From the IMG/VR virus record IMGVR_UViG_3300025154_001556: a DNA stretch of 64,000 nt; one strand, 5' to 3'. Below, one piece after another: positions 1 through 60,294 of this stretch. Positions within the stretch are counted from its first letter, which is position 1; the number at the start of each line of letters is the position of its first letter. Source of the DNA: a virus. Taxonomy: Duplodnaviria; Caudoviricetes. Below the pieces are notes generated by a model that was not told where the DNA came from, searched no databases, and saw nothing but the letters and a program-made list of their open reading frames with translations. The position numbers and the translations under genes are program-made.

Positions 1-3000
1 CCTTGGCTTTATTATAGATATCTTGTTGGACAGAAGCCTCTTCTGGAATAGTTAAACCTGATGTAGCATCTTTAAAATACTCTATCATAAACTTATTACC
101 AGAGTTTATGAGTTGTGATTTTAGCCCTTCTACTTCTGATTGAGAAGCACCTGCTGCTGTAAGCCCTTCTATTTGACTATCTAACAATTCAGCTGCTAAC
201 TGCCCCATACTTTTAGGCATTTTGGCAGTACCTAAACCAGCGTTTACCTGCTCTTCACTAGTAAGTACTTTTATGTTTTTATCACCCCAAGTTTTAAGAA
301 TGTCTGACATTTTAGATGTGTCAGTAGAGGTCATAGACACACCCTTCGATCCAAAACGTGTGGTAAACTTTCTACCAAAGTGATTCATAAAAACTTCGGC
401 AACTTTCGCTGCTTGCACTTCTACATTCTCAGAACGTACTGTTGCCATGGCTTTTTGTACTTCTGTAATAAAAGCTTTGTCTGCGCGTCCTTTATAGGTA
501 TTACTAACTCCTAACATATCCTGAAACTGGCTATATACTTTATTAATAGCCTCAGGAGAATCTACATCTTTTAACACCCCAGGCTTAACATCTGATACCG
601 CCTCTGTGCCTTTACCCGAACTTAACTCTTTTCCCAGCATCCTACCGCCGGCTGCGGGTAAAACTAATGTTTTTGTTAAAGAGGTAACAGCATCAGCAAG
701 TTTACCAGATACAAGTATTTGATCTTCAAACGTGCCGGCAGTGTGGCGTAATTCAGCAGTGACGTTAAAACCATAACCTTTCTCACCGTAACGGCCACCT
801 TCGATTAAAGATTTTTCACGCTCTGTTCTTAATGTTGGTGTTGTAGTACCAATCCCTTTTACACGGGCTACATCAAATTTATCTGTAAGGCCGTTTATTT
901 CATCAATAGAAGAGGACATAGCGTTAGTAACACCCGCTATATTACGTCCTAATTGTTGAAATTCACCAAAAGGGGCCATGCTTGTTAAGTCATCAACAAA
1001 CATCTTTATATTAGTTCCACCAAGTGCTTTTAAGTAAGATAGCCCTTCTTCGTAATCTTTATTATCCTCGTCGGCTCCTCTTACTTTATTAGATTTAAGG
1101 TAAGCTATGGAACTAGCCTGAGACTCGGGTATACCTAAGGAGGATAGTTTTCTTCCTTGTGTAGGCAGTTCTTGTAACCGTTTAACAATAGGACCAGATT
1201 CCGGAGATTCTGCCGCCAATTTAGCGAGCATGTCCCTTTCAGCGTACATTTCCTTAAAACGTAGGTTTAAATCTTTAATATAATTTTTATGTTCTTCAGG
1301 TTTTAATTCATAATCCCTTTCAGTAGGATATAAACCTGGTGTACCTCTGGAAAGAAGATTAACCACATTAGATTGCTGTAAACCACGACGTGGTTTACCG
1401 GGCTCTATTAGCGGCATCAGTTGTTCTACTTGTTTTGTAGCTGATTCAAAGCCCCTGGCACCACTCTGGTATGCTGGTTTTTCTACCAACTTTTTTAGCG
1501 GGTCTGCTAAGACCTTACCATAGATATCATATATGTTTTTAAATTCTACTTTATCTAAGGCCTTTGCAAAATCATATGCTGACACTTGTGCGGTGTTCAT
1601 CATATTAACAAAAGACATGATCTGCGTTTTAAGATCTTTGTTGGGGTCAAGGGTAAACTGATCTATCTGATTAGTAATGTTGGTTAATGCAGGTAATATG
1701 TCTAAATCAGGATCTATACGTTTTTTCTGCACCATTTTGGAAACAGTGGCTGCTTTGTACCCTTCTTTGATGCCGGAGAATTCTTTAATAACACGTGCAT
1801 ATTCAGTTGATGCAGGTGCACCCTGTTTAAAAGTGCTTATATCAGCTAGCAATTTAGTTACTAAATCTGATACAGCATTTTGTTCTAAGCGTGTTTGGGG
1901 ATTAACACCAATAGTTTGTATTTTAGAAGCATAGTCTTCTTCGCGGCTTAATGTGCCGGCCTGTAGTGCCTTACTGTACAGCTTTTCCAGCCCTGTTTCA
2001 AACATTGCAAATTTAGATAAAGCACGTTCTGAGCCATGAGCGGTTTCCAAAATAGGGGTACCGGAAGGAGTCATCCTAGCCGCAGGTAGTGCCACATTAC
2101 GGATATAAGGGGCTGGATGTTCTTTTCTTGTAGTGTCCACATCAGATAAACTTCTGTTGACCTCAGCTACCGCGTATGTTTGTCTAGTAAGTTGTGTTAG
2201 TGGCCCTAATTGACTACCAACAGCTTTTTTTACACCTTCAACTAAATTAACAGTGCCTTTGGATGTTTCATAAGCCGTTTTAAGATCAAGAAGTGCTTTT
2301 TTAATTTCAGGATCTGCCACGGTTGTCCAACCAGCTATATTTTCTTTCGACGCGGACTTCATCCACGTAGCTACTTTACTAGCCAGTAACTCCGCATTTT
2401 CATCAGCACTACCGCCATGAGTTACATTTGCCATTAACTTATCTAACTGCAGCTCTTTAAAGGCAGAAACTATTTGATTTGGATCACCCGTAGCAGTTCT
2501 TTTGTTTTTTGTAAGTTCTCTTTGCATAGATTTTACATCCGCTATCTGCATGGTCCACATTTTAGCGTTTGTTTGATTTAAGCTATTACTTACATTTGTA
2601 AAATATTTGCTACTTTCAGGAGCTCCGGGCATTTCTAAAGGCTTCCAATCAGATTTACCTAATTGCTCAGTAACCGTGTTAGTAATATCTTTTAGTAATG
2701 CATTTAATGAGCTGGAAAGCTGTCTCTCCATAGCATGGACGTCGAGGGAAGCTCTGGAAGCGGAGATACCTTTAAGAATACCTTGCACAGAATCAGCCAT
2801 CTGATCTTTTGCGGTAGCTACTTTATCGAACTCCTGTTTTATATTATCAGCACTATAACCACCTACTGCTGGTTTTATTACTTTAGATCCATAAACAGCT
2901 TTTTGTTCTGATGTACTACCGATCGCTTTAATTCTGCTAATATTTGCTGCCGGTGTGGTAGGAGCTTTGGCGCCGACATTAGTAGCAACTTTTGTAGTTG

Positions 3001-4936
3001 GTGCAGCCAACACAGTGTGTTTAGTACTATCAGCTAATTTAGTTAAAGACGCAGCTACTTCGGCTACATTACGCTCTAAGGCTTCAAACTTGCTACTTAA
3101 ATCTTCTGTTTTTATAGCCCTAACCTTAGTTACTAAATTATCAGCAATTTGAGATCCGGCCTTGGCTTGACTTACCATTGAGGCCTCAGTTGTATTTTGT
3201 AGCTCATCAATCAAAGATCGCAGGGCGGCAATCTCACTGGATGCTTTTTTTACTTCTGGGCTATTAAAAGAACTCGTCCTTAAGGTCTTATTTATAGATT
3301 CAGTTTTAACACTTAAAGATTCTGTAAGAACCCCTTTTAATGATTCTAAATTCTTTTTTAAAGTAGATATAGCTTGTTTATAATTATTAAAATAGCCACT
3401 TAAAGCTTTGGCAGCCTCGTCGGCGTTTAAATCAAGCAGCACGTCTAATTTAACGTTATCTGGAAATTTAGAAGTTATTAAACGTTCAATGTTTTCTAAC
3501 TTAGGGGCTATTACTATCTCAGCAGCACCTGATGAAATTTCCTTAATTACAGAATTAAGTTCTTTTTTAACATCCGCAGTGTCTATTGTAACATCTAGGG
3601 TGGCGGCTTTATCTATAATATCAAGTAGTGTAGTTATTTCCTTAAGTTTTTTATTAAGTGTTGTAGCTACACCTATCTTAATATCTCTATCTTTTACTAG
3701 AGTATCTATGTCTTTTTCAGCTAATTTAGTATCGGCAGAAACTTGGACAGTTACTTTACTGTTAGAAGCATTTATTATAGAATCAATTGTTTTTCTAAAT
3801 GCTTTATCATCAACATCTACTGATAGTACCAACTTTTCAGAAAGTTTATTGAGTCTAGTAATTATTTCTTTATCATTAAGGGCTACATCTATTTGTTGCT
3901 TAGACTTTTTAGTAGCTGTTTCTAGATATTTTATGTTGCTGGTAGATCCACCAGATTTTAAAAGTTTAGGTAAGTCTTCTAGTGCTTTACTTACAGCACG
4001 TAACTCAGAAAGTGTACTAACTAAAACTTTATCTGTTTGTTTAGAAGGCTCTTTACTAATTATACTTGTTTTCTTTGCAGCGGATAAAGTAACCAAACCT
4101 TTTTCTACTGATTTAGATATGGCTGAGGCCAACGCATACGTATCGATACCGCTAGCAGCAGAAGAGCGTTGTTTTGTAGTTTCTTCTTTTACGGCTTTTT
4201 TTATTTGATCTAGTTCTTTTATAATGTCAGAACTAGCAGCTGGTGAAGCCTCTACTGCTTTGGATAATTTTGTTAGTCCGGAAGTAAGTTGTTTAATCTC
4301 TGAATATAATTTTGATAGTCCAGCACTTACTTCTTTTACATTTGATGTATCTTTGGTTGTTGTAACAGTAGTTTTGTAGGAATTATCTACGCTCTTGGCT
4401 AACCCTTCTATGGCTGTTTGTAACTTAGTTAATTTACCAAAGTCAGTTGATGCAGGATCTTTTTTAATGGCAGTAAGGATAGAGGTATTGAGATCTTTTA
4501 TACTTTTGTCTATGGCAGTTTTATCTGATTTACCTGATATGGCGCCTAATACTTTTGTTAGCGCACCTAATTCTTTTGTTATAATTGATTCTAATGCCTT
4601 AGTATCTAATGTAGTTGTAGGTTTACCCGAAGACGTGGTTCCGCCTGCAGTGATACTTCGTTGAAATTCTTTGGCTATTGTTTTGGAAATATTATCTGCA
4701 AGGATCTTTGCTTGCTGGGCAGTATCTTTTGTAGCAGTGCTTGACTGAGCTTTACCATACGCATCATTTAGCCCATCCTTTATTGCTTTTTTAACAGAAG
4801 ACGCTAATCTATCGGTTAACCCATTAAATGCTTTTGCTAATGTGCTATCTAAGGTAGAAGCTATATTGTCGGCCTTATTGCTTCCTGAACTTGATCCACT
4901 TATTATATGAGATACTGTGATGTCGTGCTTAGCCAA
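1..4936 (-). CDS. Giant tape-measure-position virion protein (>1640 aa, 3'-truncated by the window) with RNA polymerase beta-like motifs
   Basis: Not in the ORF track because it runs off the edge. TTG start at 4936 with AGGAGG 7 nt upstream. The segments I translated (N-terminal about 800 nt and most of 2240 to 2) are open in one frame, and long antisense shadow ORFs cover part of the remainder. Ala/Lys/Ser/Thr-rich helical N-terminus; lies directly downstream of the tail tube and two chaperone-like genes. Contains FEDQILVSGKLA (D codon 724-722) and GRKFTTRFGSKGV (376-338). Confidence 0.8.
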   Translation of the reverse strand, partial: MAKHDITVSHIISGSSSGSNKADNIASTLDSTLAKAFNGLTDRLASSVKKAIKDGLNDAYGKAQSSTATKDTAQQAKILADNISKTIAKEFQRSITAGGTTSSGKPTTTLDTKALESIITKELGALTKVLGAISGKSDKTAIDKSIKDLNTSILTAIKKDPASTDFGKLTKLQTAIEGLAKSVDNSYKTTVTTTKDTSNVKEVSAGLSKLYSEIKQLTSGLTKLSKAVEASPAASSDIIKELDQIKKAVKEETTKQRSSAASGIDTYALASAISKSVEKGLVTLSAAKKTSIISKEPSKQTDKVLVSTLSELRAVSKALEDLPKLLKSGGSTSNIKYLETATKKSKQQIDVALNDKEIITRLNKLSEKLVLSVDVDDKAFRKTIDSIINASNSKVTVQVSADTKLAEKDIDTLVKDRDIKIGVATTLNKKLKEITTLLDIIDKAATLDVTIDTADVKKELNSVIKEISSGAAEIVIAPKLENIERLITSKFPDNVKLDVLLDLNADEAAKALSGYFNNYKQAISTLKKNLESLKGVLTESLSVKTESINKTLRTSSFNSPEVKKASSEIAALRSLIDELQNTTEASMVSQAKAGSQIADNLVTKVRAIKTEDLSSKFEALERNVAEVAASLTKLADSTKHTVLAAPTTKVATNVGAKAPTTPAANISRIKAIGSTSEQKAVYGSKVIKPAVGGYSADNIKQEFDKVATAKDQMADSVQGILKGISASRASLDVHAMERQLSSSLNALLKDITNTVTEQLGKSDWKPLEMPGAPESSKYFTNVSNSLNQTNAKMWTMQIADVKSMQRELTKNKRTATGDPNQIVSAFKELQLDKLMANVTHGGSADENAELLASKVATWMKSASKENIAGWTTVADPEIKKALLDLKTAYETSKGTVNLVEGVKKAVGSQLGPLTQLTRQTYAVAEVNRSLSDVDTTRKEHPAPYIRNVALPAARMTPSGTPILETAHGSERALSKFAMFETGLEKLYSKALQAGTLSREEDYASKIQTIGVNPQTRLEQNAVSDLVTKLLADISTFKQGAPASTEYARVIKEFSGIKEGYKAATVSKMVQKKRIDPDLDILPALTNITNQIDQFTLDPNKDLKTQIMSFVNMMNTAQVSAYDFAKALDKVEFKNIYDIYGKVLADPLKKLVEKPAYQSGARGFESATKQVEQLMPLIEPGKPRRGLQQSNVVNLLSRGTPGLYPTERDYELKPEEHKNYIKDLNLRFKEMYAERDMLAKLAAESPESGPIVKRLQELPTQGRKLSSLGIPESQASSIAYLKSNKVRGADEDNKDYEEGLSYLKALGGTNIKMFVDDLTSMAPFGEFQQLGRNIAGVTNAMSSSIDEINGLTDKFDVARVKGIGTTTPTLRTEREKSLIEGGRYGEKGYGFNVTAELRHTAGTFEDQILVSGKLADAVTSLTKTLVLPAAGGRMLGKELSSGKGTEAVSDVKPGVLKDVDSPEAINKVYSQFQDMLGVSNTYKGRADKAFITEVQKAMATVRSENVEVQAAKVAEVFMNHFGRKFTTRFGSKGVSMTSTDTSKMSDILKTWGDKNIKVLTSEEQVNAGLGTAKMPKSMGQLAAELLDSQIEGLTAAGASQSEVEGLKSQLINSGNKFMIEYFKDATSGLTIPEEASVQQDIYNKAK

Positions 4937-5015
4937 AGCGGTGCCTCCTAGATGATGTTGCTTTAATCAATTAAACATTCTTTTATTCTTAATAATAGAA
5001 TGGTTACCTTATTAC

Positions 5016-6038
5016 TTAACTCCGGCGAGTGCGCTTTTTAATGTCCGTCCTATCTTTTATTTTTTGTGCTTCTTTGGGTTTATCATACTTTATATCTTGG
5101 TATAAATCATTAGATTGCGTTATTATGACCTCTTCTTTACTAAAAGCGGACATTTTGCCTTTATTAAACTTATTACTTTTTTTAGCCGCGTTTTCTTTGG
5201 TACGCTCATTATAGTAATCAGTCATGTAAGCATCTAGTGCATCATCGTCCTCTATTATACTATCTGGTGGTCTATCTTCAGGCATCATTTCGTATATGTT
5301 AGAATAATAACTTGACCAATATATTAAATTAAGCTGATCATTAGAGTACTCAACTGTCGGTATACCAAATAAAGACTCAGTAACTTTTTGGCTATGTACA
5401 TAACGTATACGCCATAAATTGTGTCTTGCAATAAATCTAATTGTCTTCATTGGGATGCCATGATAAAAATGTAGAAAAGCATTCATAACTTTAATTTTAA
5501 AATTTATATTTTTTTCTAAAACTAAACTATCTACATTATCCCAATAATGCTTATCGCCTTGTTCTGTGTATGCACAAGCCCAACATAAATAATGATGTCT
5601 TTCTTCATCTGCCTTTGTTTCGGCGGACATGATTAACCTAGAATTCTTTTTATACTCTATTTCATTTATCTGATCTTTAATTTTATTGATAAGCTTTTTA
5701 ATTCTATCTGCATTAGCTTTTACTTTGGTAGTTTTAGACAGAAGCGCTTCTTGGGCCTCTAATTGTGATTTTAGTTTGGCAACTTTTGTTATATCTTCTT
5801 CTGTATATAAACCACGCTCGCTTAGTAATTTTTCTAATTCGGTTATAGAGTATAAGCCTTCATTGATTGCTTGCTTATAAGATCTCTCATAAACCAGTGT
5901 AGCTCTAAGACGTATTTCAGAAGTTGGTTGCTTAAATATTAAGTATACCTCTTCTGAACCTTTAGTAATGTTTACTATTTCCTTTCCTGTGAAAACCTTA
6001 AGTAGATAACTATCCACCTCTTCATAAGATAGTTCCAT
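5016..6038 (-). CDS. Probable tail assembly chaperone 2
   Basis: 340 aa ORF between the tail tube and tape-measure genes; acidic C-terminal IIEDDDALDAY segment. Assignment by synteny. Confidence 0.45.
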   Translation of the reverse strand: MELSYEEVDSYLLKVFTGKEIVNITKGSEEVYLIFKQPTSEIRLRATLVYERSYKQAINEGLYSITELEKLLSERGLYTEEDITKVAKLKSQLEAQEALLSKTTKVKANADRIKKLINKIKDQINEIEYKKNSRLIMSAETKADEERHHYLCWACAYTEQGDKHYWDNVDSLVLEKNINFKIKVMNAFLHFYHGIPMKTIRFIARHNLWRIRYVHSQKVTESLFGIPTVEYSNDQLNLIYWSSYYSNIYEMMPEDRPPDSIIEDDDALDAYMTDYYNERTKENAAKKSNKFNKGKMSAFSKEEVIITQSNDLYQDIKYDKPKEAQKIKDRTDIKKRTRRS

Positions 6039-6061
6039 GCGTGGCCTTTATATATAGTTAT

Positions 6062-6083
6062 GGGGCTGCTTTTATACAGCCCC
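6062..6083 (-). terminator. Intrinsic terminator-like hairpin between the two chaperone-like genes
   Basis: GGGGCTG-N8-CAGCCCC inverted repeat just downstream of the 6101 stop; weak U-tract. Confidence 0.5.
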
Positions 6084-6100
6084 TTATAACAAGCAATTCT

Positions 6101-6859
6101 TTATTTTGTTTTTTTACGATTTGTTTTTGGCTTTACAACTTCAGACTCAACAGAAGTATTGTGCTCTTCGGTAACCAGTTGTTCTTCTTTAAGTTCGTCA
6201 ACAAGTTCTTCTTCTGCTGCTGCTTTAGCTGCCTCTAAGGCAGCCCTAGCTCTGGTCATGAGATCTTCTTCTACCTCTTTCATAGCCATAGCTTCCGGAG
6301 ACTTTTCCATAAAGTTTGAATCAAGTCCTTGCAGGAACAACATTACTTCGAAACGTGCTCTCATTGCTAGATCTTTATTCTTTGACTTTAAAAAAGCATC
6401 GTAGTTTTCCCACACCCTTTTACCATTAGCGTCTTTGGTAATACTTGAAGTTAGATGTTCCAGTCTGGAATCATCAGCCATCTGTTCACAGGTATTTGAT
6501 AACGGCCCGTTTAAACGTTGGTTCCATTGGAAGAGTTCTTCTCTGGCTATGGATACTTCTACCGCCAAGTTTCTTTTGTCTTCCATTGTTTCTGCTGAGT
6601 CAAGTTGGTCTATCTTGGAGCGTAGGTCTGCAATAAGCTCTTGGGCTCTTTGTTCGAACTCAGGACCAATAATGCCTCTACGCATAAGAATGTCTTGCAT
6701 TTCTGCAGCAGTTGTTATGCCCTCTACCAAACATTTAGTGTATGTTTTGCTGTATTGCCAGTCGGCGCCGCGGATGTCTTCTGCGGTGGGGGATGAGATA
6801 AAATATTCGGTGGTGCCATCAGCACCCTTGAAGTTACGATCTATGGTGTTATCGCTCAT
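6101..6859 (-). CDS. Probable tail assembly chaperone 1
   Basis: 252 aa helical, charged ORF with a good RBS, downstream of the tail tube gene. Synteny only. Confidence 0.45.
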   Translation of the reverse strand: MSDNTIDRNFKGADGTTEYFISSPTAEDIRGADWQYSKTYTKCLVEGITTAAEMQDILMRRGIIGPEFEQRAQELIADLRSKIDQLDSAETMEDKRNLAVEVSIAREELFQWNQRLNGPLSNTCEQMADDSRLEHLTSSITKDANGKRVWENYDAFLKSKNKDLAMRARFEVMLFLQGLDSNFMEKSPEAMAMKEVEEDLMTRARAALEAAKAAAEEELVDELKEEQLVTEEHNTSVESEVVKPKTNRKKTK

Positions 6860-6900
6860 AATAAATACTCCTTTACCTTTAAATTAAAAACCTTAGCCTT

Positions 6901-7152
6901 TTACTTCCTATTATTTGAAACTTCTATAACATCCTCTGAATTGATTTTTAATACCATCTCGTATTGGTCTGATTTGTTTTTCAGATTCCTAATACAGTTA
7001 TTACCAACTCTGAGGATTTTGGCTCTAAGTGCTTTGAACGTCCCTTGATGTTCACAAGCCACCTGAGCAAAGTCTAAAGCAGATTCAAATAGTCTTGTCA
7101 CTTCTTTTTCTATTTCTCTTTTGAATCTATCCCTGCTCTTTAAATTATCCAT
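6901..7152 (-). CDS. Conserved-looking hypothetical protein (83 aa)
   Basis: The track start at 7197 lies in a terminator; the ATG at 7152 (MDNLKSRDR) has GGAGG upstream. Confidence 0.6.
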   Translation of the reverse strand: MDNLKSRDRFKREIEKEVTRLFESALDFAQVACEHQGTFKALRAKILRVGNNCIRNLKNKSDQYEMVLKINSEDVIEVSNNRK

Positions 7153-7176
7153 TCCTTTAATCCTCCAAATATATAA

Positions 7177-7200
7177 GGGGTGAGGTATTACCCCCACCCC
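7177..7200 (-). terminator. Terminator after the major tail gene
   Basis: Minus-strand GGGGTGGGG-GTAATA-CCTCACCCC stem followed by TTATAT, 18 nt after the 7218 stop. Confidence 0.65.
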
Positions 7201-12184: not shown

Positions 12185-12928
12185 TTAATCCTCCAAATAA
12201 CTACATTTATAATTCTTATGTTGGTTTCTGTTACCCTTGGCGCATGACACCATATGGGCCGGGTTAAGTTTATGCTCCCTACAAAAAGACGCTAAACAGT
12301 CTATAAGTATAATTTCGCCTGTAGGTGTCTCTATACTGTATTTCTTGGCATTTGGATTTAAAGCCCCAATAAATCTACCTTTTAATGTAGTAGCTATTTT
12401 ACTTTTAGTTTCATTATGTCTTGGTTTACCATAATTAGGGTTGTTAGCCCCAACATACATCCCAGAGTTCTTCCTTGTTTCTGACATCTTTCTTTTGGCG
12501 GACTCTGTATGTTTTCTGCCTTTTTTAGACGCACTAATCTTTTGTCTGGCTTCTTCTGATAGAATGTTACCGTAAGCGGGATGATCGGAGCCTTTTAATC
12601 CGTACATTGCATTTAACTCGCCTACAGCCCCTATACTATTAGTTCCACCTTCAGTCATATTGTACCCTTTGTTAAAACTATTATACTCATTTATATAGTA
12701 TATTTCCTTTTCATTCAGCGCTTCTTTATTATAAGCACTATCTAACTTAGACCAAATAAAATTGGCCGGGCCGTGTTTTAATAAAGCTTGATACAGTTTA
12801 TACGATTTACGTTTCATGGCATTTAAATGTTGTGTTTTACGTCTTGCCAAAGTATGCGTAGTTTGACCTATATATACTTTACCATTAATTACATTAGTTA
12901 CTTTATATATTATACCGTAAATATTCAT
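12185..12928 (-). mobile_element. Free-standing GIY-YIG homing endonuclease with NUMOD3 repeats
   Basis: GIIYKVTN...KVYIGQT, R..QH, EKE, GYN motifs; HTESAKRKMSE-type NUMOD3 repeats; abuts both neighbours with no intron sequence. Confidence 0.9.
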
Positions 12929-12935: not shown

Positions 12936-15155
12936 CTATAAATTTGTAGGCCATGGAAACACTACATTAGTTTTTTGTACACGCATACTAGGTTTAATTT
13001 CTATTGCTTGCGTTGACTTTTCACCAACCTCATGAGCATGTGTCTCAGGATCTTTTACGGCAACAACCCTGGTTATTACAGAACCTATACCCATTATCAC
13101 GTCATCTAAATAGATACTTAAAGGCCTGGTGGCTTTAAATTCTATCTCATCTATATACACCTCGGTCATATTAAAAGAATCAAACGGTATATAGATTCTT
13201 TGCCATTCTTCTATCAAACTACTGTTTAAATAATGCCTTAAACTTACGGCATTACCATTAATACTGCCTACACTTTTTAAAGTAACTTCTATGTCCGCAG
13301 CTGCTGACCATTCTTGTAGGTTTAATTGCACCGCTATTAAGTCATACTCCTCAGTACTTATTGGGGGACCTATACGTATAAAACTAAATGAACTATTGGT
13401 TAACATACCAGAAGCGTCTAAACCATTTGTTCCTGATTTCATGGCATCCGGTGATTCTACACCAAAACCACTATGCAACCAGTCGCCCCCTATATCTGCT
13501 ACGCCAGTACCATTCCAAATATAGTAGTAGGCCTCTGTTGGACAAACAACATCAATTTCTTGTAATAAACTGTCATTAGTTGTTGTGCCTGTACCATGTA
13601 CATAGCCTATTATTCTATAAGAGCCTAATGAGGTAAAACATACCTTTTTTTCTTTTTGCTCTAAGCCTACAGGGCTCTCCCATGTTAGTTCCCAAGAACC
13701 CTCATTATCTTTATACACTTCCCAATGATAGCCTGTCGTTGTTCCATCAGAAGAAGTACCAGTTATTTCTAATAAATAGTAGCATTCTACTGTGGTAATA
13801 GTAACATTTGTAGTAAATACCACATCATAACTTATAGTAGTGGTTTGGTTGTACCAACCATCATTCCAATAGGCTGTTAATGTCACAATACCAGAATCTA
13901 TCTGCGGGGTGTATTCAAAAACGTAGTCATGAGTGACATTGGTCGCTGTTGTTAAGTCCCCATCTTCATTATATATCCAAGTATATCTATAACCATTTGG
14001 AGTATAAGTACCTACCCTATCGTAAGAAGTAGTTGTGTTAAGAAACTGCGCTTCTTCCGCAACTGTAACTTGGGCGGGAAACTGTGTAAAATCTACTAAG
14101 GGTCCGCCGAATAATCCTTGCTCTATTGGTATACTATAACTTATTACATGATCTTCAAAGTAGTCATTCCAATGTATATCTATACTTATTGTGTGTGTTC
14201 CTGGATTAGTAAAAGCACCTAATACGTTTGATTGTCCATACCAAGAAGTACCTAACCCCTCTGTATGGCTTATCACATCGTCTCTATTAGCAGAAACCAA
14301 AGTAGTTGTTGAACCAAAGGCCCCTGTGTCAATTATAGCCCAGTCTATACTAATTATTCTATTGTCTACATCAGTACCTGTATATTCAAATGTTACTGGT
14401 GTATTTGGGTCCAATACAACACCTGATACTGCCTGATGACATGTTATAGCTGGAACAGGGGCATGATATAATATCTGTATACTTTTGGTGTCACTTGTTA
14501 CTGTGGCACATTCATCTTCTATATTTATATCTACATTATATATACCAGCAGTAGCCCATTGGTGTGTGGAGGATGCTACACCAGAAAGGTCTAATGTACT
14601 TGCTGTGTCGCCCCAAAAATAATCAGTATTTGTTATGGTATTTACTAATTGTATGTTTTCTCCATAACGGGTTCGCCAATGATTCATAGTGACGCCATTA
14701 AAATCCCAACTATGCACGTCATAAGAAGTGTTGGTAGTGGTATAATTAGTATTAACTAAACCCGTGGTTGGTAAACTCCATACAAGATTAGGTGCTATAT
14801 TACTTTTTACTTGTATATCTAACGTATACACTGAACTACCATCTAAGGTAATTTCTGTTGCGCTCCATTGTTCTAGTAAAGAGCAGTCAGCATTTCTATC
14901 AGTAGTTGTGCCTTTCCAAAAAACTATTATTACTTTTGCATTATTTAGTGCCGCACCTTCTTGCCCTAAAAAAGCTTGATCTCCTAAATTAAAACTCCAA
15001 TAAGAAGTAGATTCACAAATTCTAACATCATTCCACGTGGAAGCTGATGAAGCGGTACCATTGTTATAAAAGTATGCTTGGTATTTTATGGTAGCCCCTG
15101 ATAAAGTAGCGTCCTCTAAGTAGGAAAAACCATTTATAGTAATGTTTAAAGCCAT
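12936..15155 (-). CDS. Large beta-rich virion accessory protein with PKD/Ig-like repeats and a C-terminal carbohydrate-binding-like domain
   Basis: 739 aa; PKD-like HQWATAGIYNVDINIED and FTNPGTHTISIDI segments; WQRIYIPFDSF resembles CBM11/CIA30-type domains. Confidence 0.55.
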   Translation of the reverse strand: MALNITINGFSYLEDATLSGATIKYQAYFYNNGTASSASTWNDVRICESTSYWSFNLGDQAFLGQEGAALNNAKVIIVFWKGTTTDRNADCSLLEQWSATEITLDGSSVYTLDIQVKSNIAPNLVWSLPTTGLVNTNYTTTNTSYDVHSWDFNGVTMNHWRTRYGENIQLVNTITNTDYFWGDTASTLDLSGVASSTHQWATAGIYNVDINIEDECATVTSDTKSIQILYHAPVPAITCHQAVSGVVLDPNTPVTFEYTGTDVDNRIISIDWAIIDTGAFGSTTTLVSANRDDVISHTEGLGTSWYGQSNVLGAFTNPGTHTISIDIHWNDYFEDHVISYSIPIEQGLFGGPLVDFTQFPAQVTVAEEAQFLNTTTSYDRVGTYTPNGYRYTWIYNEDGDLTTATNVTHDYVFEYTPQIDSGIVTLTAYWNDGWYNQTTTISYDVVFTTNVTITTVECYYLLEITGTSSDGTTTGYHWEVYKDNEGSWELTWESPVGLEQKEKKVCFTSLGSYRIIGYVHGTGTTTNDSLLQEIDVVCPTEAYYYIWNGTGVADIGGDWLHSGFGVESPDAMKSGTNGLDASGMLTNSSFSFIRIGPPISTEEYDLIAVQLNLQEWSAAADIEVTLKSVGSINGNAVSLRHYLNSSLIEEWQRIYIPFDSFNMTEVYIDEIEFKATRPLSIYLDDVIMGIGSVITRVVAVKDPETHAHEVGEKSTQAIEIKPSMRVQKTNVVFPWPTNL

Positions 15156-24294: not shown

Positions 24295-25365
24295 TTACAG
24301 GGAACGGTCAATTATACCCATGCCCAACATACGGCTATCGAGACACGCGAATCCAAGCTCTGCCCAACCAAAAAAGCCTTGTTTTTGCTGGCGAAGTAAA
24401 ACAGGATCTTCAATTGCCTCAAACTCTTTTCTAACAGGCATTACAAGAGAATCATTTACAGACATATCAAAGCCATAAATCTGAGTCTCTCCAAGAGTAG
24501 CTATTGTACCATCAGCTGCGGTAATATTACCGTGCTCTAATGTGTAGGAATTGTACTGGTTGCTGCTATCAGCAGTAAACTTGCCGTAAGCAGACGTATT
24601 GTCGTTGATATTGTAAAGACCGGTAGCGCCAAGATGTTGAATTTCATGCATTACAACACCCCAAATCTGACCCATACCAGCTACCTGGAAGATTTCTCTT
24701 CGGGTTATCGGATCAATATCGGTATCAGTCCATTCACGGATATCAGCTGCATCTTCTGGGCTGATATAAAGGTCTGTGAGTTTACGACCAGTACGTTTAA
24801 AACCAGTAATCATTTTATTGATAAGTTCTTTTGATAGATAACCAGCACCAGTTGACCCAGGGGATATCTCGTAAATAGGTGCCGGTCTAGAACCAAGCAG
24901 ACCCTTACCTGAAAAAGAAGATGTTGCTGCAGGTACTATTACCCGCCAACCACTTTCTTCTTCATAGTTAGCTAAGTCTTTAGCTACACGTGCAGCAGCA
25001 CGTTGCGGAATATCTATACGTGAGTCTCTGGCATAGGTGATTTTCCAATCAGCCGAAGAGGCGATAGTAAAAGTAGGTATGTTTACTTCTTCACCGATAC
25101 CTTCGATGAAGTTTTGGGCAACATAACCAAGACCTGGGAGAACCCAAACAGGTATCTCAAAATCTTCAGCTACTGGGTATACAGCCTGTGCACCTGGCCC
25201 GAGGCGTTCAACAGTAAATAACTGTCGCATAACCGACTCCAACTCAATCTTTTGCAAAATAGGTACAGTCAAAGCGGCGGCGAATGCCCTATAAGCGGCC
25301 AAACCTTCTGGGGTCTGCACATTAGCTGTGGCCTTAAAAAGTTCTTGCATTTCATGTTTTTCCAT
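24295..25365 (-). CDS. Major capsid protein (HK97 fold)
   Basis: 356 aa, downstream of portal, protease and scaffold; strong RBS and terminator; C-terminal EDP..LRQQKQGFFGWAELGF.CLD typical of large-phage MCPs. Confidence 0.85.
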   Translation of the reverse strand: MEKHEMQELFKATANVQTPEGLAAYRAFAAALTVPILQKIELESVMRQLFTVERLGPGAQAVYPVAEDFEIPVWVLPGLGYVAQNFIEGIGEEVNIPTFTIASSADWKITYARDSRIDIPQRAAARVAKDLANYEEESGWRVIVPAATSSFSGKGLLGSRPAPIYEISPGSTGAGYLSKELINKMITGFKRTGRKLTDLYISPEDAADIREWTDTDIDPITRREIFQVAGMGQIWGVVMHEIQHLGATGLYNINDNTSAYGKFTADSSNQYNSYTLEHGNITAADGTIATLGETQIYGFDMSVNDSLVMPVRKEFEAIEDPVLLRQQKQGFFGWAELGFACLDSRMLGMGIIDRSL

Positions 25366-28576: not shown

Positions 28577-30379
28577 TTAATTACTGTTTCTAATAGAATC
28601 CAATTGCTGTAAAAAAGTACTATATTCTTCTTCTGATAAATCTTTTACTATGTATTCTATTGTATTTAACGACGCTTCTGACTTAGGTGCCTTTGCAGGT
28701 TTTTTAGTTAGTTTCTGTGGATCTGTTTCTTTTTTATTAGTGGGTGATGTAACTTTACCTGAAGGTCTACCATTAGAAGGTGTTCCAACAGGAGCCCCTT
28801 GAACGTCCTGTGTTTTAGCCTGCTGCCATGGACTACCAGCAATCCCAAATATACCATCCTGAACTAATTGAAATTCATTAGTCATATTATTAAGTTCATT
28901 AGGATAATCAAAACCTAATAATTCTAAGGCTGTTTGATAGCTAAGCATCCTTCTATCTACTAACTGTGATATAGTACTCATATATAGAATGATATCCTTT
29001 AATATACTATTATCCCATCTAACTTTCGGAAATCTTTCAAAACCCATAGCCTCAGCTATCTGCCTAAATTCTTTGTACAGCCACCTACTTACTTGGCGGC
29101 GGGCATATTCAATTTCTTCCAATACCCCCTTAATAACCATATTAACACTATCAGCACTGAAATTACCAACACCGTCTATAAGGGCCCTAGTCATACCTAA
29201 ACCACCAGTAATGTCCTCATTCACTTGTTCATATTTAGTTTTGCCTAAAATAGATGAAATTTCAGGGCTAACTATTTTTTCTACTTTTAATGTGTGGTTC
29301 CATACAACATCGAAGGATTTACTTGGGGTATTAAATAACGCGGCTACTGCTTCTAATTCTGCTTGTGACGTTACTGGATATTCGTCATTACCCACAGTGA
29401 TTTTTAGTATATAGTTAGATATACCATCTAGTGTACTTAAATCAGCCTCACGTAATGCTTTTTTATAGTTTAAGGAATCGAACACCCTAGTAAGTTTAGG
29501 TCTTGCATAACGTTCATAAGGTTGTTTTCTATAAGTAATAGTGCTTACTAACCTAGAATCCAGTTGTAACTCTTTACCACTTTCTGCGGCGGCCCTTAAA
29601 TCACTGGGAAGGGATTTAATCAGTATTTTCTCTTCTTCGGTCAAAGTGCTGGAAGGCTTTTTAAGTAGATCTTTTAATTCTGTGGGTGTTGTGAGTTTAA
29701 CTGACACACTGTCGAAGAGTAAATTGCCGTCTATGGTTACCAATGCTGGATTTAATACTGTGTAGGCTATGGGAAGATGCCCTTTTGACCATATTTTTTT
29801 AGCCGCGGCTGTTTCTAAATTAGCTGTCTTTTTTAATGATTTTCCTGGTGCAGGTGAAAGAGTAGATACTCTTGGTTCATATTTTGCTACTACTTTGTAA
29901 GTAGTTACCTGCCCTACTTTAAAAAAGTCTAAAAATATCCATTCTAAAACTTCATCCATAGCGATATCAAATATCCAAGTGTCATAAAAATTCTTAATAT
30001 TCTCATCATCTATATCTAATTCAAACCCCTTTACTGCTAAGGAAGCCATTAAGTTTGTTGTGGTACCTACAATTGGATCTGTGTAGTAATACCTAATAGC
30101 CTTTTTATAAGCATCTTGCGGGGTCTCATCATAAGGATCTTTGGCCAAACCAATATCTAATAAAGATCTGCTTATAGCATCTCTTGTTATTGTGGAGGCT
30201 GTTGCCTGATGTATCCTAGGTGTTACAGCGTCACCTGGTTTTTCCAGAAAAGCCAAGGACTTTTTAGTTGGCTGTAAGTAGAACATAGATTTACCATTAG
30301 CTTCATCCAGCTCTATACTTCTTATACCCACATCAGGATATTTTTCTTGTAGTTCACTTGTTAGTTTATTTAAATCCAT
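28577..30379 (-). CDS. Portal protein
   Basis: 600 aa between the terminase region and protease; YYYTDPIVGT..NL, YARP.L.RVFD, P.VRWD motifs. Confidence 0.8.
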   Translation of the reverse strand: MDLNKLTSELQEKYPDVGIRSIELDEANGKSMFYLQPTKKSLAFLEKPGDAVTPRIHQATASTITRDAISRSLLDIGLAKDPYDETPQDAYKKAIRYYYTDPIVGTTTNLMASLAVKGFELDIDDENIKNFYDTWIFDIAMDEVLEWIFLDFFKVGQVTTYKVVAKYEPRVSTLSPAPGKSLKKTANLETAAAKKIWSKGHLPIAYTVLNPALVTIDGNLLFDSVSVKLTTPTELKDLLKKPSSTLTEEEKILIKSLPSDLRAAAESGKELQLDSRLVSTITYRKQPYERYARPKLTRVFDSLNYKKALREADLSTLDGISNYILKITVGNDEYPVTSQAELEAVAALFNTPSKSFDVVWNHTLKVEKIVSPEISSILGKTKYEQVNEDITGGLGMTRALIDGVGNFSADSVNMVIKGVLEEIEYARRQVSRWLYKEFRQIAEAMGFERFPKVRWDNSILKDIILYMSTISQLVDRRMLSYQTALELLGFDYPNELNNMTNEFQLVQDGIFGIAGSPWQQAKTQDVQGAPVGTPSNGRPSGKVTSPTNKKETDPQKLTKKPAKAPKSEASLNTIEYIVKDLSEEEYSTFLQQLDSIRNSN

Positions 30380-32863: not shown

Positions 32864-34594
32864 TTACTTTATTTTTTTCTTTAATATGGCCATAGACATA
32901 TTAGTATTACTTGCCACATTAGTGATGGGCTTTGCTATTTCTCTAAAAGAAGAGTTGGGTGTCCTCTCTCTGATCATACCACCACTGCTATGTAGTACAG
33001 GATCTAAAACAGTATCCACAGGTTTACTAAGTTCTTTTGCGCCGAAGCCGGCCAGTATTAATGAGGAGTATAGATCTTTGTTTTGCCCTTTTTTGGGTGT
33101 ATCAAAGTGTAGCACACCGCTGCCTGTTTGTGTTAGTATGATACTTAGTAGTTGTTTTTTAAGTTCATATATGGCTGCGTATTGTTCATCTAATTGATCA
33201 GACCCGTCCGGCATGCGCTCTGGAAATAGTAAAAGTCTGTCTTCAAATAATGATAACGTTGAATAGTTAGCTTCTTGTATCCACTGTGGAGTAAAATTTA
33301 TTAACTCTAATATATGTTTACCTTTCCAGTGAGAATGATCTGGATTAGTTCTATCTATAATCGGTGTTGCACCATTATAACCTTCTTCTAACAAGTCACA
33401 TATAGCTTTACCACCGCCGGCCTTATCCATATATATACGAATAACGTTATACGTTTTGCAAACACTCTGTAAAGTAGTTACCATACCTTGTGTCGTGCCA
33501 TTCTTTACTTCTAACATATTTACTATTCTATTTGGTTGCCCTAATTTAACTATGGACACACCACAGCTTGCTGAGCCACCTTGATTAGGGTCTACCCCAA
33601 TGACATATTCAGCCTTACTATCTCCACTTAGTTCTAAGTAGTGCCCACTGTTACTTGTACATGCTTCTAGCATAGAAGCTTTAAAAAAGCCTTCGGAATC
33701 AGACACCATTTCTGCTTCATATTCCATACGAAATTCATGGTCAGACATTACCCGGCGGGCCTCTTCAATGTTGTTCTCGTCCAAGAAACCTTTTGGTAAA
33801 AACCAGTGAGGTATCTGATGCACCATAACATTAGACTCTTCTTCACCTTCTTGTATGATTTTATCCCAATAGGCACGCATACGCCTATACATATGGTTGA
33901 ATTTATAGAAGCCGGAAGAGGTCATTACCATCTTATTAACTTGATCATCATCAAAATCGTCTTCTGTGGCTAACCCGGATTCGATCAACAGCCTCATCTG
34001 TTCAAGGCGTCTAACATTAGCCATAGGATCTTGTTTAGTGGCGCCCATAGGTCGAAGAACCATATCAAGTATCTTATCTGGAACTTGTGCTAACTCATCA
34101 ATACATATTAAATAAAAACGTGAACCACGAATTTTAGCACCGTCATTACCTAGTGGTATGGCTTCAATGAATGAACCGTTACTAGAACCAACGGATTTAA
34201 ATTTAAGATAGGCTGTATCAGAGCCTCTAATAGGTTTCTTTTCTGTGGCTTCTCTGAGAATGGCTGATTTTGTATAGTGTTTTTCTACTTCTGAAAAAAT
34301 CATTTTTGATTGTCTAAAAGAGGGGCCTACTAAACCAACCCTGTACCCTGGATATAGCATAGCACGCAATGCAGCAAGTGTTCCAAGTAAAAAGCTTTTT
34401 CCAAAACCACGGCCGGCGACAGTGATTGTGTAGTCCCTAAACCACATATCCTCGAATACTATACGTTGTATAGGGGCTAAGTCTACACCTAATAAATCGT
34501 AGGCTGCTATACAGGGATTATTTCGATAGAACTCTATTAGCATAGGCCCTTGTCCCATTACAGCATCCATCATTCTACCTTTCTTACGAGCCAT
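32864..34594 (-). CDS. terL: Terminase large subunit
   Basis: Walker A AGRGFGKS, Walker B ICIDE, RNase-H-like VIGVDP nuclease start, C-terminal KDLYSSL. Confidence 0.92.
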   Translation of the reverse strand: MARKKGRMMDAVMGQGPMLIEFYRNNPCIAAYDLLGVDLAPIQRIVFEDMWFRDYTITVAGRGFGKSFLLGTLAALRAMLYPGYRVGLVGPSFRQSKMIFSEVEKHYTKSAILREATEKKPIRGSDTAYLKFKSVGSSNGSFIEAIPLGNDGAKIRGSRFYLICIDELAQVPDKILDMVLRPMGATKQDPMANVRRLEQMRLLIESGLATEDDFDDDQVNKMVMTSSGFYKFNHMYRRMRAYWDKIIQEGEEESNVMVHQIPHWFLPKGFLDENNIEEARRVMSDHEFRMEYEAEMVSDSEGFFKASMLEACTSNSGHYLELSGDSKAEYVIGVDPNQGGSASCGVSIVKLGQPNRIVNMLEVKNGTTQGMVTTLQSVCKTYNVIRIYMDKAGGGKAICDLLEEGYNGATPIIDRTNPDHSHWKGKHILELINFTPQWIQEANYSTLSLFEDRLLLFPERMPDGSDQLDEQYAAIYELKKQLLSIILTQTGSGVLHFDTPKKGQNKDLYSSLILAGFGAKELSKPVDTVLDPVLHSSGGMIRERTPNSSFREIAKPITNVASNTNMSMAILKKKIK

Positions 34595-45464: not shown

Positions 45465-46745
45465 TTAACATAATTTTTTATCTTGTAGTAAGTCAGCTAG
45501 TGCTATTAGACCACCTCTATGTGAGTTTGGTAGTTCAACATAAGCTAAACTTTTATGTGGTAGAATTCTTAATAATTTTAGTAAGCCTGATTCAGAAGGT
45601 CTTACAACATTGTATGTTTGTGCTAAATCACCTAATAGTATTAGTTTACTTCCTTTATTAGCCCTTGATAATATCATACTCATAGTATCTATATCTATAA
45701 GTTGGCATTCATCACAAATCATTATGTCTGATTCTAATATACTCATACCTTGAATTACATTTATTGGCACAGCTTCAAATTTATCTTGAAAGTATCTATC
45801 CTTAACTATATCATACTTTATACTATTTTGGTCTTTACTTGATCCTTGATTTCTGGTATTAGCATATAGATAATATAATGCACTTAATATACCAGCAAAC
45901 CACGCTTCCATTTTTGCTTGTTTATCACCGGGCAAGAACCCTATATCGTATTTATGGCTTATACCAATTGGAGGTCTGGTGATAAATATTTTATTGTCAC
46001 TGTTGCAAGATAAGGCATAGGCTGTGCTTAGTAAAGTTTTCCCTGTTCCCCATTTACCAGTAATTAAAACACCGTCAGCTTCTGTCATAGCGTATATAGC
46101 ACATATTTGGTATATATCCAGCGCTTTTAGTTTATTACCCTCCACAACAACTTCTCTATACTCAGGCATATTATCTATACGTGACACTGTGCCTTTAATA
46201 GGGTTAGTAGCATATACGTAAGCATTATTTAATATAACAAACTTCCAGCATTCAGTGTCTATGTCTAATTGTAATTCTATATTAAAATCATATAAACTGT
46301 AATTTTGTAAGTAAGTAAAGTTCTCTGGTAGATCTTTGATATCTAAATGTATGTATGGTTTAAATATACCGTTTGGTATAATATCATATAATACAGTGTC
46401 CACACCCTTAGTTGCCGCTATAACTGACATAGACAAATCTTTTGTGGCTAAGTCGGCTTTATTTTTTATAGCCGCGTCAATTATTAAAGTATCGTTTGTT
46501 TTTAATTCCTCGTTGTCAACAGCCAACACTAATCTGTTTGGGTGTGCTTCTCTAAAAGCAACTATTTCATAGATTGCTGTTCTAGCACTATAAGATAAAT
46601 CAGGATTAAATTTATGTTTATCAAGTTCTTTCAATACTGTTAATGGAACTATTACTTTTTCATATTTATTTAGCGACTTAAATAATATTTTAGGGTCATC
46701 TAATAATATATTTGTATCAATTAAGATATTTTTATTTTTTAACAT
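45465..46745 (-). CDS. phoH: PIN-PhoH family protein (PhoH2/YlaK-like)
   Basis: N-terminal PIN ILIDTNILL...VLKELD...NDTLII; P-loop GKWGTGKT; ITRP; ICDECQ; LLGDLAQ; SHRGGL. Confidence 0.88.
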   Translation of the reverse strand: MLKNKNILIDTNILLDDPKILFKSLNKYEKVIVPLTVLKELDKHKFNPDLSYSARTAIYEIVAFREAHPNRLVLAVDNEELKTNDTLIIDAAIKNKADLATKDLSMSVIAATKGVDTVLYDIIPNGIFKPYIHLDIKDLPENFTYLQNYSLYDFNIELQLDIDTECWKFVILNNAYVYATNPIKGTVSRIDNMPEYREVVVEGNKLKALDIYQICAIYAMTEADGVLITGKWGTGKTLLSTAYALSCNSDNKIFITRPPIGISHKYDIGFLPGDKQAKMEAWFAGILSALYYLYANTRNQGSSKDQNSIKYDIVKDRYFQDKFEAVPINVIQGMSILESDIMICDECQLIDIDTMSMILSRANKGSKLILLGDLAQTYNVVRPSESGLLKLLRILPHKSLAYVELPNSHRGGLIALADLLQDKKLC

Positions 46746-55879: not shown

Positions 55880-56083
55880 ATGTTTATTTGTGAGATATGT
55901 AACTGTGCTTTTGAGAGGGAGTATTCTCCAATATGTGGTAAACAACTGTGCTATGATGCCTTCATGCATATGGTCTACGATGGTGATGACAACTGGGGCC
56001 CTGAGAATGGGAATTGTTGCCCTTGTAATAGTCCTAACTGTGATGGCACTTGTGAGAAAAACACCAAGAAAAAGGAGGTATAG
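55880..56083 (+). CDS. Cys-rich small protein (67 aa)
   Basis: True start MFICEIC after the repeated leader. Confidence 0.65.
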   Translation: MFICEICNCAFEREYSPICGKQLCYDAFMHMVYDGDDNWGPENGNCCPCNSPNCDGTCEKNTKKKEV

Positions 56084-56084
56084 T

Positions 56085-56294
56085 ATGAATTGTATTAAAA
56101 ACTGTGTTAGCTGTGTTGAGGCTGGATGTGCCTCCCATCCGTTGAGGACGCTGTTGAAGGTATGCCATAAATGTGGTAAAAAGGAGGTGCTGACAATAAC
56201 AGAGCATGGGGCCATAGCCTCGTGCCCTAACGACAAGCACCCTGCCCGTATACTGCGTGCTGCTGGCAACGTATGGGCAGCTATGGGTTGCTAA
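56085..56294 (+). CDS. Cys-rich small protein (69 aa)
   Basis: Start MNCIKNC after AAGGAGG; CHKC motif. Confidence 0.6.
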   Translation: MNCIKNCVSCVEAGCASHPLRTLLKVCHKCGKKEVLTITEHGAIASCPNDKHPARILRAAGNVWAAMGC

Positions 56295-56343
56295 CTATCA
56301 ATGGGCCAGGTTAGTACGACTGGCCCAAACTAAGGGGTATACT

Positions 56344-56724
56344 ATGAAGATAAATAATGCGTTAAAAAGACTCATTGAAGAGGCCTTATCAGAGGCTAAG
56401 GAAGCCTCTACTGATTATGTGATGGTAAGAAGCCTTTTTCGTCATGCGCTGCGGAGGAAGACCCGCCTCTCTATGGCACAGGCTACATGGATATGGCACA
56501 ACCACGTCCCACATATCAACTTGCTGTGCCGTGTTGATATGGGCTATCAAGAGGATATAACCGGCTTCGATTCCTTGAAAGAAAAACATGCCTTCTTGAT
56601 AGCACAGGGCATATGTCCTAATTGTGGGGGCAAGATTATCAGCTGTAATCCGACGTTCTGTGAAAATTCGGCCAAGGCACCGGATGCTGATGATGAAGGC
56701 CCCTTCTGTAACTTTGAACAATAA
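56344..56724 (+). CDS. Hypothetical protein with C-terminal CPNC motif
   Basis: Start MKINN after AAGGGG. Confidence 0.6.
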   Translation: MKINNALKRLIEEALSEAKEASTDYVMVRSLFRHALRRKTRLSMAQATWIWHNHVPHINLLCRVDMGYQEDITGFDSLKEKHAFLIAQGICPNCGGKIISCNPTFCENSAKAPDADDEGPFCNFEQ

Positions 56725-56735
56725 GGAGATTTACC

Positions 56736-56954
56736 ATGACTGCTAATACTGTCACTACTACCAATGAACATCCGCCGTTTGTAACCACGTATGAATGTAT
56801 CATAGGATGGAAAGCTGTTTTGATTGCGTGGGATGTTGAGTTTGGGTACATTCCGGATAATACCGCCTGCTACGCTCATCCAACTGAGGACGTTGCTATC
56901 GAGGATGCTAAGCAGTGGGCGGAAGCCGAAGGAATTGAGTATCGTCCGCGCTAA
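56736..56954 (+). CDS. Hypothetical protein
   Basis: 72 aa; AAGGAG RBS. C-terminus AIEDAKQWAEAEGIEY resembles AEDIAEAWAKEEGLVY of the 58521 protein. Confidence 0.6.
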   Translation: MTANTVTTTNEHPPFVTTYECIIGWKAVLIAWDVEFGYIPDNTACYAHPTEDVAIEDAKQWAEAEGIEYRPR

Positions 56955-56994
56955 ATAGTTTATTTGTCTCTAACCTTTTTTCAGGAGAATTACC

Positions 56995-57753: not shown

Positions 57754-57764
57754 TTGCCTCTTTT

Positions 57765-57794
57765 CTCTGCCTATCCACTGTTAGGTAGGCAGAG
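57765..57794 (+). terminator. Hairpin after the MORN gene
   Basis: CTCTGCCTA-N12-TAGGCAGAG; no clear U-tract. Confidence 0.45.
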
Positions 57795-57823
57795 GTTAGG
57801 AGACAAGTACTTATCACCATATC

Positions 57824-58033: not shown

Positions 58034-58048
58034 TACAACGGAGGATAT

Positions 58049-58499: not shown

Positions 58500-58520
58500 G
58501 CAACCTGGGAGGGTAGACTT

Positions 58521-59153: not shown

Positions 59154-59159
59154 GCGTTA

Positions 59160-59248: not shown

Positions 59249-59267
59249 GAATTATAGGAGAATTACC

Positions 59268-60242: not shown

Positions 60243-60250
60243 TCTAATCA

Positions 60251-60274: not shown

Positions 60275-60294
60275 ATACCCAACGAGGTAACGTT

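Follow-up and report, generated by a model that had tools for sequence, protein, structure and literature searches.

At its left edge, a 64,000-nt stretch of viral DNA (Duplodnaviria; Caudoviricetes; IMG/VR record IMGVR_UViG_3300025154_001556; hereafter the window) carries the first part of a giant gene on the minus strand. Its product is a tape measure protein (TMP) that also holds, N-terminal to its tape-measure core, a module predicted to combine the folds of the two large subunits of RNA polymerase (RNAP). The best explanation of these features is a single-chain RNAP of the two-barrel type that is embedded in the TMP, delivered with the virion and used to transcribe the first phage genes, and we give this reading a probability of roughly 0.75. 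Its components differ in strength. The module is almost certainly a homologue of two-barrel RNAPs and very likely catalytically active, and it would be DNA-dependent; delivery with the virion followed by early transcription, argued by analogy, is reasonably likely.

The left-edge open reading frame (ORF; positions 2..4936, minus strand) remains open for 1,645 codons and runs past the edge of the window. It is a real gene, given a Shine-Dalgarno sequence 7 nt before its TTG start codon (table 1) and the identity of its translation to the first 1,645 residues of a database protein of 7,618 aa, P0004, whose numbering is used throughout. Relatives occur on two IMG/VR contigs of 234 kb (96% identity) and 111 kb (43%), and joining overlapping IMG/VR loci yielded full-length homologues of 7,715 and 7,470 aa from these contigs. 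P0004 belongs to a family of 49 clusters at 90% identity with proteins of 6,400-8,000 aa, which are very large for phage proteins. Residues 1-944, to which Pfam offers weak, coiled-coil-type matches only, probably form a coiled coil, judging from their composition. BLASTP similarity between two giant proteins that are 43% identical begins at residue 945, and the position at which the RNAP module starts differs between family members. Across its 7,618 residues P0004 has 0 cysteines, and residues 4542-4568 form one strongly hydrophobic segment. The absence of cysteine may relate to unfolded passage through the tail or envelope.

The C-terminal half of P0004 is a bona fide TP901-type tape measure. 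Domain PF10145 (PhageMin_Tail), present in all 49 clusters, is matched at about residues 4032-4229 (93.4 bits against a cut-off of 33.2; E 2.2e-26), and PHROG families of TMPs match about 3970-4927 (E 3e-72), with further matches at about 5400-5760. The core is 27-30% identical to the TMPs of Bacillus siphophages Slash, Staley, Stills and Basilisk (E about 1e-37 to 1e-39). Because the tail tube gene lies only three small genes upstream, the giant gene also occupies the canonical TMP slot. A sequence-only reading of the window had proposed that the gene in this slot is, or is fused to, an RNAP, and these matches together with the upstream tube gene bear out the TMP part of that reading. Scans of the window's own part of the giant protein against Pfam and PHROG gave coiled-coil noise or no match.

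Residues characteristic of the RNAP beta subunit are conserved almost absolutely within the window's part of the protein. The four peptides that the sequence-only reading had likened to beta motifs are all present in the translation of positions 4936 to 2 (table 1). Conservation was counted over 92 homologues that are 28-69% identical to the window protein: E1404, D1405, K1523, G1529, K1531, G1532 and G1578 are kept in all 92, R1527 in 91, Q1406 in 90 and P1574 in 85, and V1533 is also nearly invariant, while the loops around these catalytic-type residues vary freely. In Escherichia coli rpoB, NFEDSILVSERV lies at 811-822, GDKMAGRHGNKGV at 1063-1075 and PSRMNIGQILE begins at 1104, as checked in the RefSeq sequence. 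The lysines K1523 and K1531 are 8 residues apart, as are K1065 and K1073 of E. coli, and K1523 follows D1405 by 118 residues; both spacings had been read correctly from the letters. In a profile alignment with hhalign, TFEDQILVSGKLA falls onto E. coli beta 808-831 (E 0.04). Three of the four motif resemblances are therefore beyond chance by conservation, but that of DVKPGV is unsupported because the peptide is poorly conserved (D in 27 and P in 32 of the 92 homologues) and lies in a disordered loop (model residues 72-98; predicted local distance difference test score, pLDDT, <50). The E. coli motifs that had been quoted for comparison are present as listed above, except that 'V.PGD' is absent from E. 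coli beta.

Predicted structure supports a beta/Rpb2-type module with strands of a double-psi beta-barrel (DPBB) at residues 1360-1900. This segment was modelled alone by AlphaFold with the 92 sequences because the motif region is of low confidence in a larger 1,200-aa model, and the resulting model has a pLDDT of 81.1 and a predicted template modelling score of 0.76. The best 50 Foldseek matches are all beta/Rpb2-type subunits; Thermus beta is aligned over 153-169 columns at 18-22% identity with a probability of about 0.9. A scan of 48,161 chains with VIA-align, which is independent of Foldseek, gave a similar result. Its best nine chains are all second-largest RNAP subunits (Z 8.8-12.0), from, in order of rank, African swine fever virus (ASFV), Pol I (A135), the plastid-encoded polymerase (beta), Xanthomonas (beta 721-1279), the AR9 non-virion RNAP, Pol IV, the phiKZ non-virion RNAP, vaccinia virus and Pol III. 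The next chain is at Z 6.3, unrelated chains have a Z of 6.3 or less, and 10 chains in all reach a Z of at least 5. Several of the nine align with a root-mean-square deviation of 3.3-3.9 Å over 177-196 residues (Pol I A135, Z 11.3, 3.6 Å over 196 aa). The DPBB fold that had been expected of this segment is thus what AlphaFold, Foldseek and VIA-align predict.

The counterpart of the beta' subunit follows at residues of about 1900-2750, past the left edge of the window. A DxDGD motif had been expected in this direction, and DFDGD is found at residues 2480-2484, in a region that matches beta'/Rpb1 at a Z of about 13. The motif is kept as D[FY]DGD in 48 of the 49 family clusters, within a block of the form K-L-D-x-D-G-D-x-I-E-I-H. 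The sequences R2376-x-P-F-T-G and Q-K-G-M-D-V-K-H-A-G (2717-2726; in 48 sequences) are likewise invariant or nearly so, and the second falls in the part beyond the beta' barrel where a bridge helix and a trigger loop would lie. In E. coli rpoC, the aspartates of NADFDGD are at 460-464 (RefSeq check), and hhalign places QKLDFDGDQIEIH..EAR onto E. coli beta' 455-481 (E 0.004). Sub-threshold matches to PF00623 (Rpb1 domain 2) occur in 30 of 48 members (best E 7e-4), with a score of 13.1 bits against a cut-off of 25.3 in a search of the long contigs.

The larger model (1,200 aa, residues 1345-2544; pLDDT 74.9) places beta-like and beta'-like folds in one TMP. Its best 50 Foldseek matches are all largest RNAP subunits (probability up to 0.99). 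With VIA-align, model residues 560-1184 align with E. coli beta' 24-505 at Z 12.6-13.2 over 255-290 residues, and the same region aligns with the equivalent part of the largest subunits of Pol I, II and III. At Z 8 or more there are 492 chains, the wide scan retrieves both RNAP subunit types within one chain, and the single-chain polymerase QDE-1 matches over both barrels (Z 9.4). In P0004 the beta-like half precedes the beta'-like half and both are N-terminal to the TMP core. As far as models can, the structure predictions settle the presence of a polymerase, a relationship that profile methods barely see.

A chance resemblance of motifs in a long, low-complexity TMP would be in keeping with the weak E-values of the two pairwise hhalign matches and with the spurious fourth motif. 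But each of two independent models, searched against the whole PDB, brings up only RNAP subunits of the matching type, and DxDGD is conserved and located where it was expected. As far as computation allows, the two VIA-align scans refute chance resemblance, and its likelihood is negligible. Alternatively, the module could be the inactive remnant of a polymerase that persists only for its structural role in the TMP or for setting its length. Its unusual features, namely the lack of cysteine, of a flap-like insert and of any Pfam match above threshold, fit such decay. However, the three aspartates, the two lysines and the E-D pair are invariant down to 28% identity although nearby loops vary freely, and a dead enzyme is very improbable.

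Several observations nevertheless weigh against an embedded, virion-delivered polymerase. Searches with Pfam, PHROG, phmmer and hmmsearch found no link to RNAP for the window's own segment, PF00562 (RNA_pol_Rpb2_6) matches the beta-like segment in 0 of 47 members tested one by one, and searches of PDB sequences with phmmer and with a 46-sequence profile returned coiled-coil or helical noise and no RNAP. The beta assignment hence draws on predicted structure and motif conservation. Individual Foldseek E-values are weak (1e-3 to 1e-1), the motif region in the window has a pLDDT of 30-60 in the 1,200-aa model, and in the wide scan helical bundles produce noise at Z 9-12 over part of the beta' region. 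Since P0004 has no cysteine, the zinc sites of beta' are absent. Cellular-type beta typically contains a beta-rich flap insert of the sandwich-barrel hybrid motif (SBHM) type, as do the beta barrels of killer plasmids and jumbo phages (Iyer et al. 2021, PMC7824862). The insert between FED and the lysines, of about 110 aa, is unlike this flap and is helical or disordered in the model (pLDDT 40-83, between E48-50 and E163-166). The sequence was found in none of the RNA runs searched. A further difficulty is physical: whether and how a folded RNAP fits in and passes through a tail tube was left open for phage P23-45 (PMC10770324), and the same puzzle applies here to a module of about 150 kDa.

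The concept of a virion RNAP fused to a TMP is already known from P23-45, whose gp96 was published in 2024. This TMP of 5,002 aa has an active RNAP at residues 327-1124 (Chaban et al. 2024, Nat Commun 15:317, PMC10770324; PDB 8h2m, 8h2n), occurs in virions and drives transcription of pre-early genes from specific AT-rich promoters. In its authors' proposal, it acts at the TMP pore during DNA entry, coupling transcription with DNA translocation; they termed it 'a previously unsuspected association', and it was then known from only four close Thermus phages (PMC10770324). It is a closer precedent than the virion RNAPs of crAss-like phages, which the sequence-only reading had offered as the parallel. 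As in P23-45, the protein described here is a giant TMP of a long-tailed phage in which a two-barrel RNAP of one chain precedes the TMP part and carries a DFDGD metal-binding motif, and the presumed logic is the same: an RNAP delivered with the DNA makes the first transcription independent of the host.

On the model of gp96, the TMP would be assembled inside the tail tube with its RNAP attached and would be expelled into the cell envelope at infection. There the attached polymerase would meet the incoming end of the DNA and transcribe the first phage genes without the host polymerase. Packaging, ejection and early transcription are each argued from this analogy.

Between the RNAP module and the TMP core, P0004 also contains a putative nuclease of the Cas4/RecB-like PD-(D/E)xK type that may act on DNA at entry. 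Seven residues are conserved in 21 sequences (H3314, E3331, D3348, D3363, K3365, Q3415 and Y3419), the motifs hD, (D/E)xK and QxxxY occur in order, and PF12705 is matched weakly in this region by 8 of 21 members. The profile matches PDB 4ic1, labelled 'Uncharacterized protein' (E 8.8e-5), which we take to be the Sulfolobus Cas4 SSO0001. Precomputed Pfam annotation lists other extra domains in the family, an RNase_T-type exonuclease (PF00929) in P0048 and P0050 and PF14449 in P0016. These domains suggest that enzymatic cargo varies among TMPs of the P0004 family.

Another possibility is that the two-barrel polymerase is active but has a main job other than gene expression. It could serve as a motor that pulls in the very long genome by transcribing it, or make primers or other RNAs, and the role of the adjacent nuclease would be to process DNA ends or to attack host DNA. 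This draws on the same structural and conservation evidence as early transcription does, as well as on the conserved nuclease in the same polypeptide, on a large genome of about 234 kb and on the coupling of transcription to DNA translocation proposed by Chaban et al. (PMC10770324). No evidence here separates it from early-gene transcription and the roles are compatible, but the fused enzyme of P23-45 transcribes pre-early genes from specific promoters (PMC10770324). We consider a main role outside gene expression unlikely and favor virion-delivered transcription of the first genes.

Despite the shared architecture, the fusion probably arose independently of P23-45 gp96, because the two have no detectable homology, the module here is closer to multisubunit beta and beta', and the TMPs are of different types. 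An hhalign comparison of the family profile with gp96 1-1200 gave a probability of 0.4%. Structures 8h2m and 8h2n were among those searched and appear in no Foldseek or VIA-align match list, while 9 of the 10 chains that reach Z 5 with the beta-like half are beta subunits of cellular or phiKZ/AR9/ASFV type and none of the 10 is gp96. The RNAP is internal in P0004 (about 1360-2750, after about 1,350 residues) rather than at 327-1124 as in gp96, and the module is larger and resembles beta and beta' of the multisubunit type. The TMP part has PF10145 and a Cas4-like nuclease, whereas gp96 has Peptidase_M23 and no PF10145, and the settings are mesophilic groundwater and soil rather than those of Thermus phages. 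A single ancient fusion inherited by both lineages would explain their common order and DFDGD, and sequence similarity between two-barrel RNAP families has often faded beyond detection (PMC10770324). Yet, in addition to the differences above, the terminase and TMP core are closest to those of Bacillota siphophages and not of Thermus phages. The two long contigs (234 kb, 89% complete, and 111 kb) also have no gp64-like, non-virion paralogue by a beta'-like profile and PF00623, a search in which a very divergent one could be missed. Common descent of the two fusions is therefore improbable.

Compared with multisubunit RNAPs, the module shares collinear motifs (FED, G.K..(T/G)R.G.KGV, P..M.G, R.P..(H/G) and DFDGD) and a beta-then-beta' order as in rpoB-rpoC, and the best structural matches of both halves are multisubunit beta and beta', including enzymes of phiKZ, AR9, ASFV and poxviruses. 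It differs in being one polypeptide fused to a tail protein and in that the N-terminal half of beta is not recognizable. The distance from D1405 to K1523 is 118 aa compared with 251 from D814 to K1065 in E. coli. The module is no standard cellular-type RNAP either, as it passes no curated Pfam cut-off, lacks zinc sites and carries a short helical insert in place of the SBHM flap.

Single-chain, two-barrel polymerases are also known from gp66 of the crAss-like phage phi14:2 and from QDE-1-type enzymes, and the module resembles them in this respect. As reported in the literature, gp66 belongs to a large virion protein that is delivered during infection; it is found in podovirus-like crAss phages outside a TMP, and has a DFDxD motif as opposed to the DFDGD seen here. 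Polymerases of the gp66/QDE-1 type rank below cellular-type subunits in our searches and gp66 itself is absent from the match lists. A crAss-like affiliation of the phage was rejected given its gene order (terminase, portal, capsid, tube and TP901-core TMP) and the absence of gp66 from the structural matches. TP901-family TMPs of Bacillota siphophages have a homologous core, and their matches cover only residues 3900-4700 of P0004. The 'moraphage' jumbo lineage is a separate group: its tails are contractile, and neither a TMP nor an RNAP has been identified in it (PMC12619734). By its tape-measure core the family falls among TP901-type TMPs and, by fold and motifs, it belongs to the two-barrel RNAP superfamily.

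The family is widespread in environmental samples. An exhaustive HMMER scan yielded 83 representatives at 50% identity and no match outside the family, the RNAP module occurs on 47 environmental IMG/VR viral contigs of up to about 270-300 kb, with 269 kb as the upper length in the IMG/VR search, and the DNA recurs in metagenomes of groundwater and soil. When the C-terminal 496 aa of the window protein were compared by tblastn with 50,697 phage records, no cultured phage matched. Automatic annotation names the family 'TP901 family tape measure protein' only. The source is an uncultured long-tailed phage of groundwater and soil, and its genome measures at least about 230 kb. Among genome contigs, the only ones with family members are contigs of 16-25 kb in metagenome-assembled genomes (L012, L013 and L014) labelled as Gammaproteobacteria, Woesearchaeota and Fermentibacteria. 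These labels were rejected as evidence of hosts because they are mutually inconsistent; the contigs are most likely mis-binned phage DNA.

The literature examined, comprising papers that cite Chaban et al. and the supplements of PMC10770324, reports no other TMP-RNAP families. Among viral structures, the two-barrel model is matched best by A0A8S5SD80_1 (BFVD), a fragment annotated 'Minor tail protein' from uncultured Siphoviridae sp. ctnpt50 (E 6.3e-4, probability 1.00, 1,263 aligned columns, 8% identity). It may represent a further, unannotated family of tail-embedded RNAPs, and the match hints that more such families exist.

To our knowledge, TMPs and RNAPs were thought to be functionally unrelated before 2024. 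An architecture like that of gp96 now recurs in a family that is unrelated to it, far larger and widespread (49 to 83 clusters, 47 viral contigs, many samples). As far as the examined literature shows, the unrelated environmental family, the differently built internal polymerase, the added nuclease and the protein size of 7,000-8,000 aa are new. We hold evenly balanced the fuller proposal that this is a second, independent TMP-borne polymerase. It would be a minimized beta-beta' RNAP, structurally closer to the multisubunit lineage than to gp96 or QDE-1, that sits with a Cas4-like nuclease in a TP901-type TMP, a cysteine-free 'pilot polyprotein' threaded through a micrometre-scale tail by a widespread environmental clade of jumbo siphophages. 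If true, delivery of large enzymes through the tail lumen is a recurrent strategy and not an oddity of Thermus phages, and how a tail tube can accommodate and expel a polymerase of about 150 kDa or larger becomes a general question. The family would also offer a more diverse set of polymerases, from mesophilic settings, in which a coupling of transcription to genome entry could be tested, and it would add a minimized single-chain beta-beta' enzyme, without zinc sites or a flap-like insert, to the few two-barrel RNAPs that inform the evolution of RNAPs.

The window carries a phage structural module on the minus strand (table 1), and its terminase, like the TMP core, is closest to those of Bacillota siphophages (e.g., Bacillus phages Slash, Staley, Stills and Basilisk). 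The three small genes before the TMP gene gave no match in Pfam and PHROG scans, and their place in the gene order makes them tail assembly chaperone candidates. At 537 aa, the tail tube protein exceeds the matched clusters of tube proteins, which measure about 280-430 aa.

Table 1. Coordinates of features in the window and in protein P0004
Feature	Residues of P0004	Window position	Strand	Basis or remark
Large terminase		32864-34594	-	
Portal		28577-30379	-	
Major capsid protein		24295-25365	-	
Tail tube protein, 537 aa		7218..8831	-	atlas feature score 0.93 to Phage_tube_2 clusters; structural TM score 0.74-0.88, target-normalised
Three genes without assigned family (98, 252, 340 aa), between tube and TMP genes		5016..7197	-	ORF list
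Shine-Dalgarno sequence AGGAGG		4944..4949	-	sequence read
TTG start codon of giant gene		4934-4936	-	same TTG start in loci L001 and L002
Low-complexity stretch rich in A/S/T/K/E/L	1-944	2105..4936	-	composition; poorly conserved, length varies in family
Conserved stretch before RNAP module	945-1359	860..2104	-	conserved between the two 43%-identical giant proteins (G001, G002); within HMMER family matches
First half of predicted beta/Rpb2-like module (1360-1900)	1360-1645	2..859	-	includes first double-psi barrel strands; AlphaFold, Foldseek, VIA-align
Peptide GFNVTAELRHTAGTFEDQILVSGKLA	1389-1414	695-772	-	ORF translation
F1403-E1404-D1405, counterpart of E. coli beta E813-D814	1403-1405	722..730	-	conservation and hhalign
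DVKPGV	1449-1454	575-592	-	non-conserved; variable, disordered loop
Peptide GRKFTTRFGSKGV with K1523 and K1531	1521-1533	338-376	-	counterpart of beta GDKMAGRHGNKGV (K1065, K1073)
MPKSMGQLAAE	1573-1583	188-220	-	
P1574-K-S-M-G1578, likely counterpart of beta PSRMNIGQ	1574-1578	203..217	-	order (collinear with beta P1104) and conservation only
Putative Cas4/RecB-like PD-(D/E)xK nuclease	about 3290-3430	about 4.8-5.3 kb left of window start		between RNAP module and TMP core

The window also encodes other proteins. A gene for a homing endonuclease of the GIY-YIG/HNH type (12185-12928, minus strand; phrog_314, E 3e-43) interrupts the block of structural genes. Beside it, a 739-aa protein (12936-15155, minus strand) resembles PKD/Ig-like repeats by atlas features and structure, with weak scores of 0.85 or less, and may be a decoration or fibre protein. 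A PIN-PhoH fusion protein (PF13638 and PF02562; phrog_2765, E 3e-59) is encoded at 45465-46745 on the minus strand. From 56000 to 64000, coding switches to the plus strand and GC content is 0.42-0.45, compared with 0.30-0.38 elsewhere; this region, which may be another phage module or acquired DNA, includes genes for a MORN-repeat protein (56995-57753) and a weakly Lcl_C-like protein (59220-60242).

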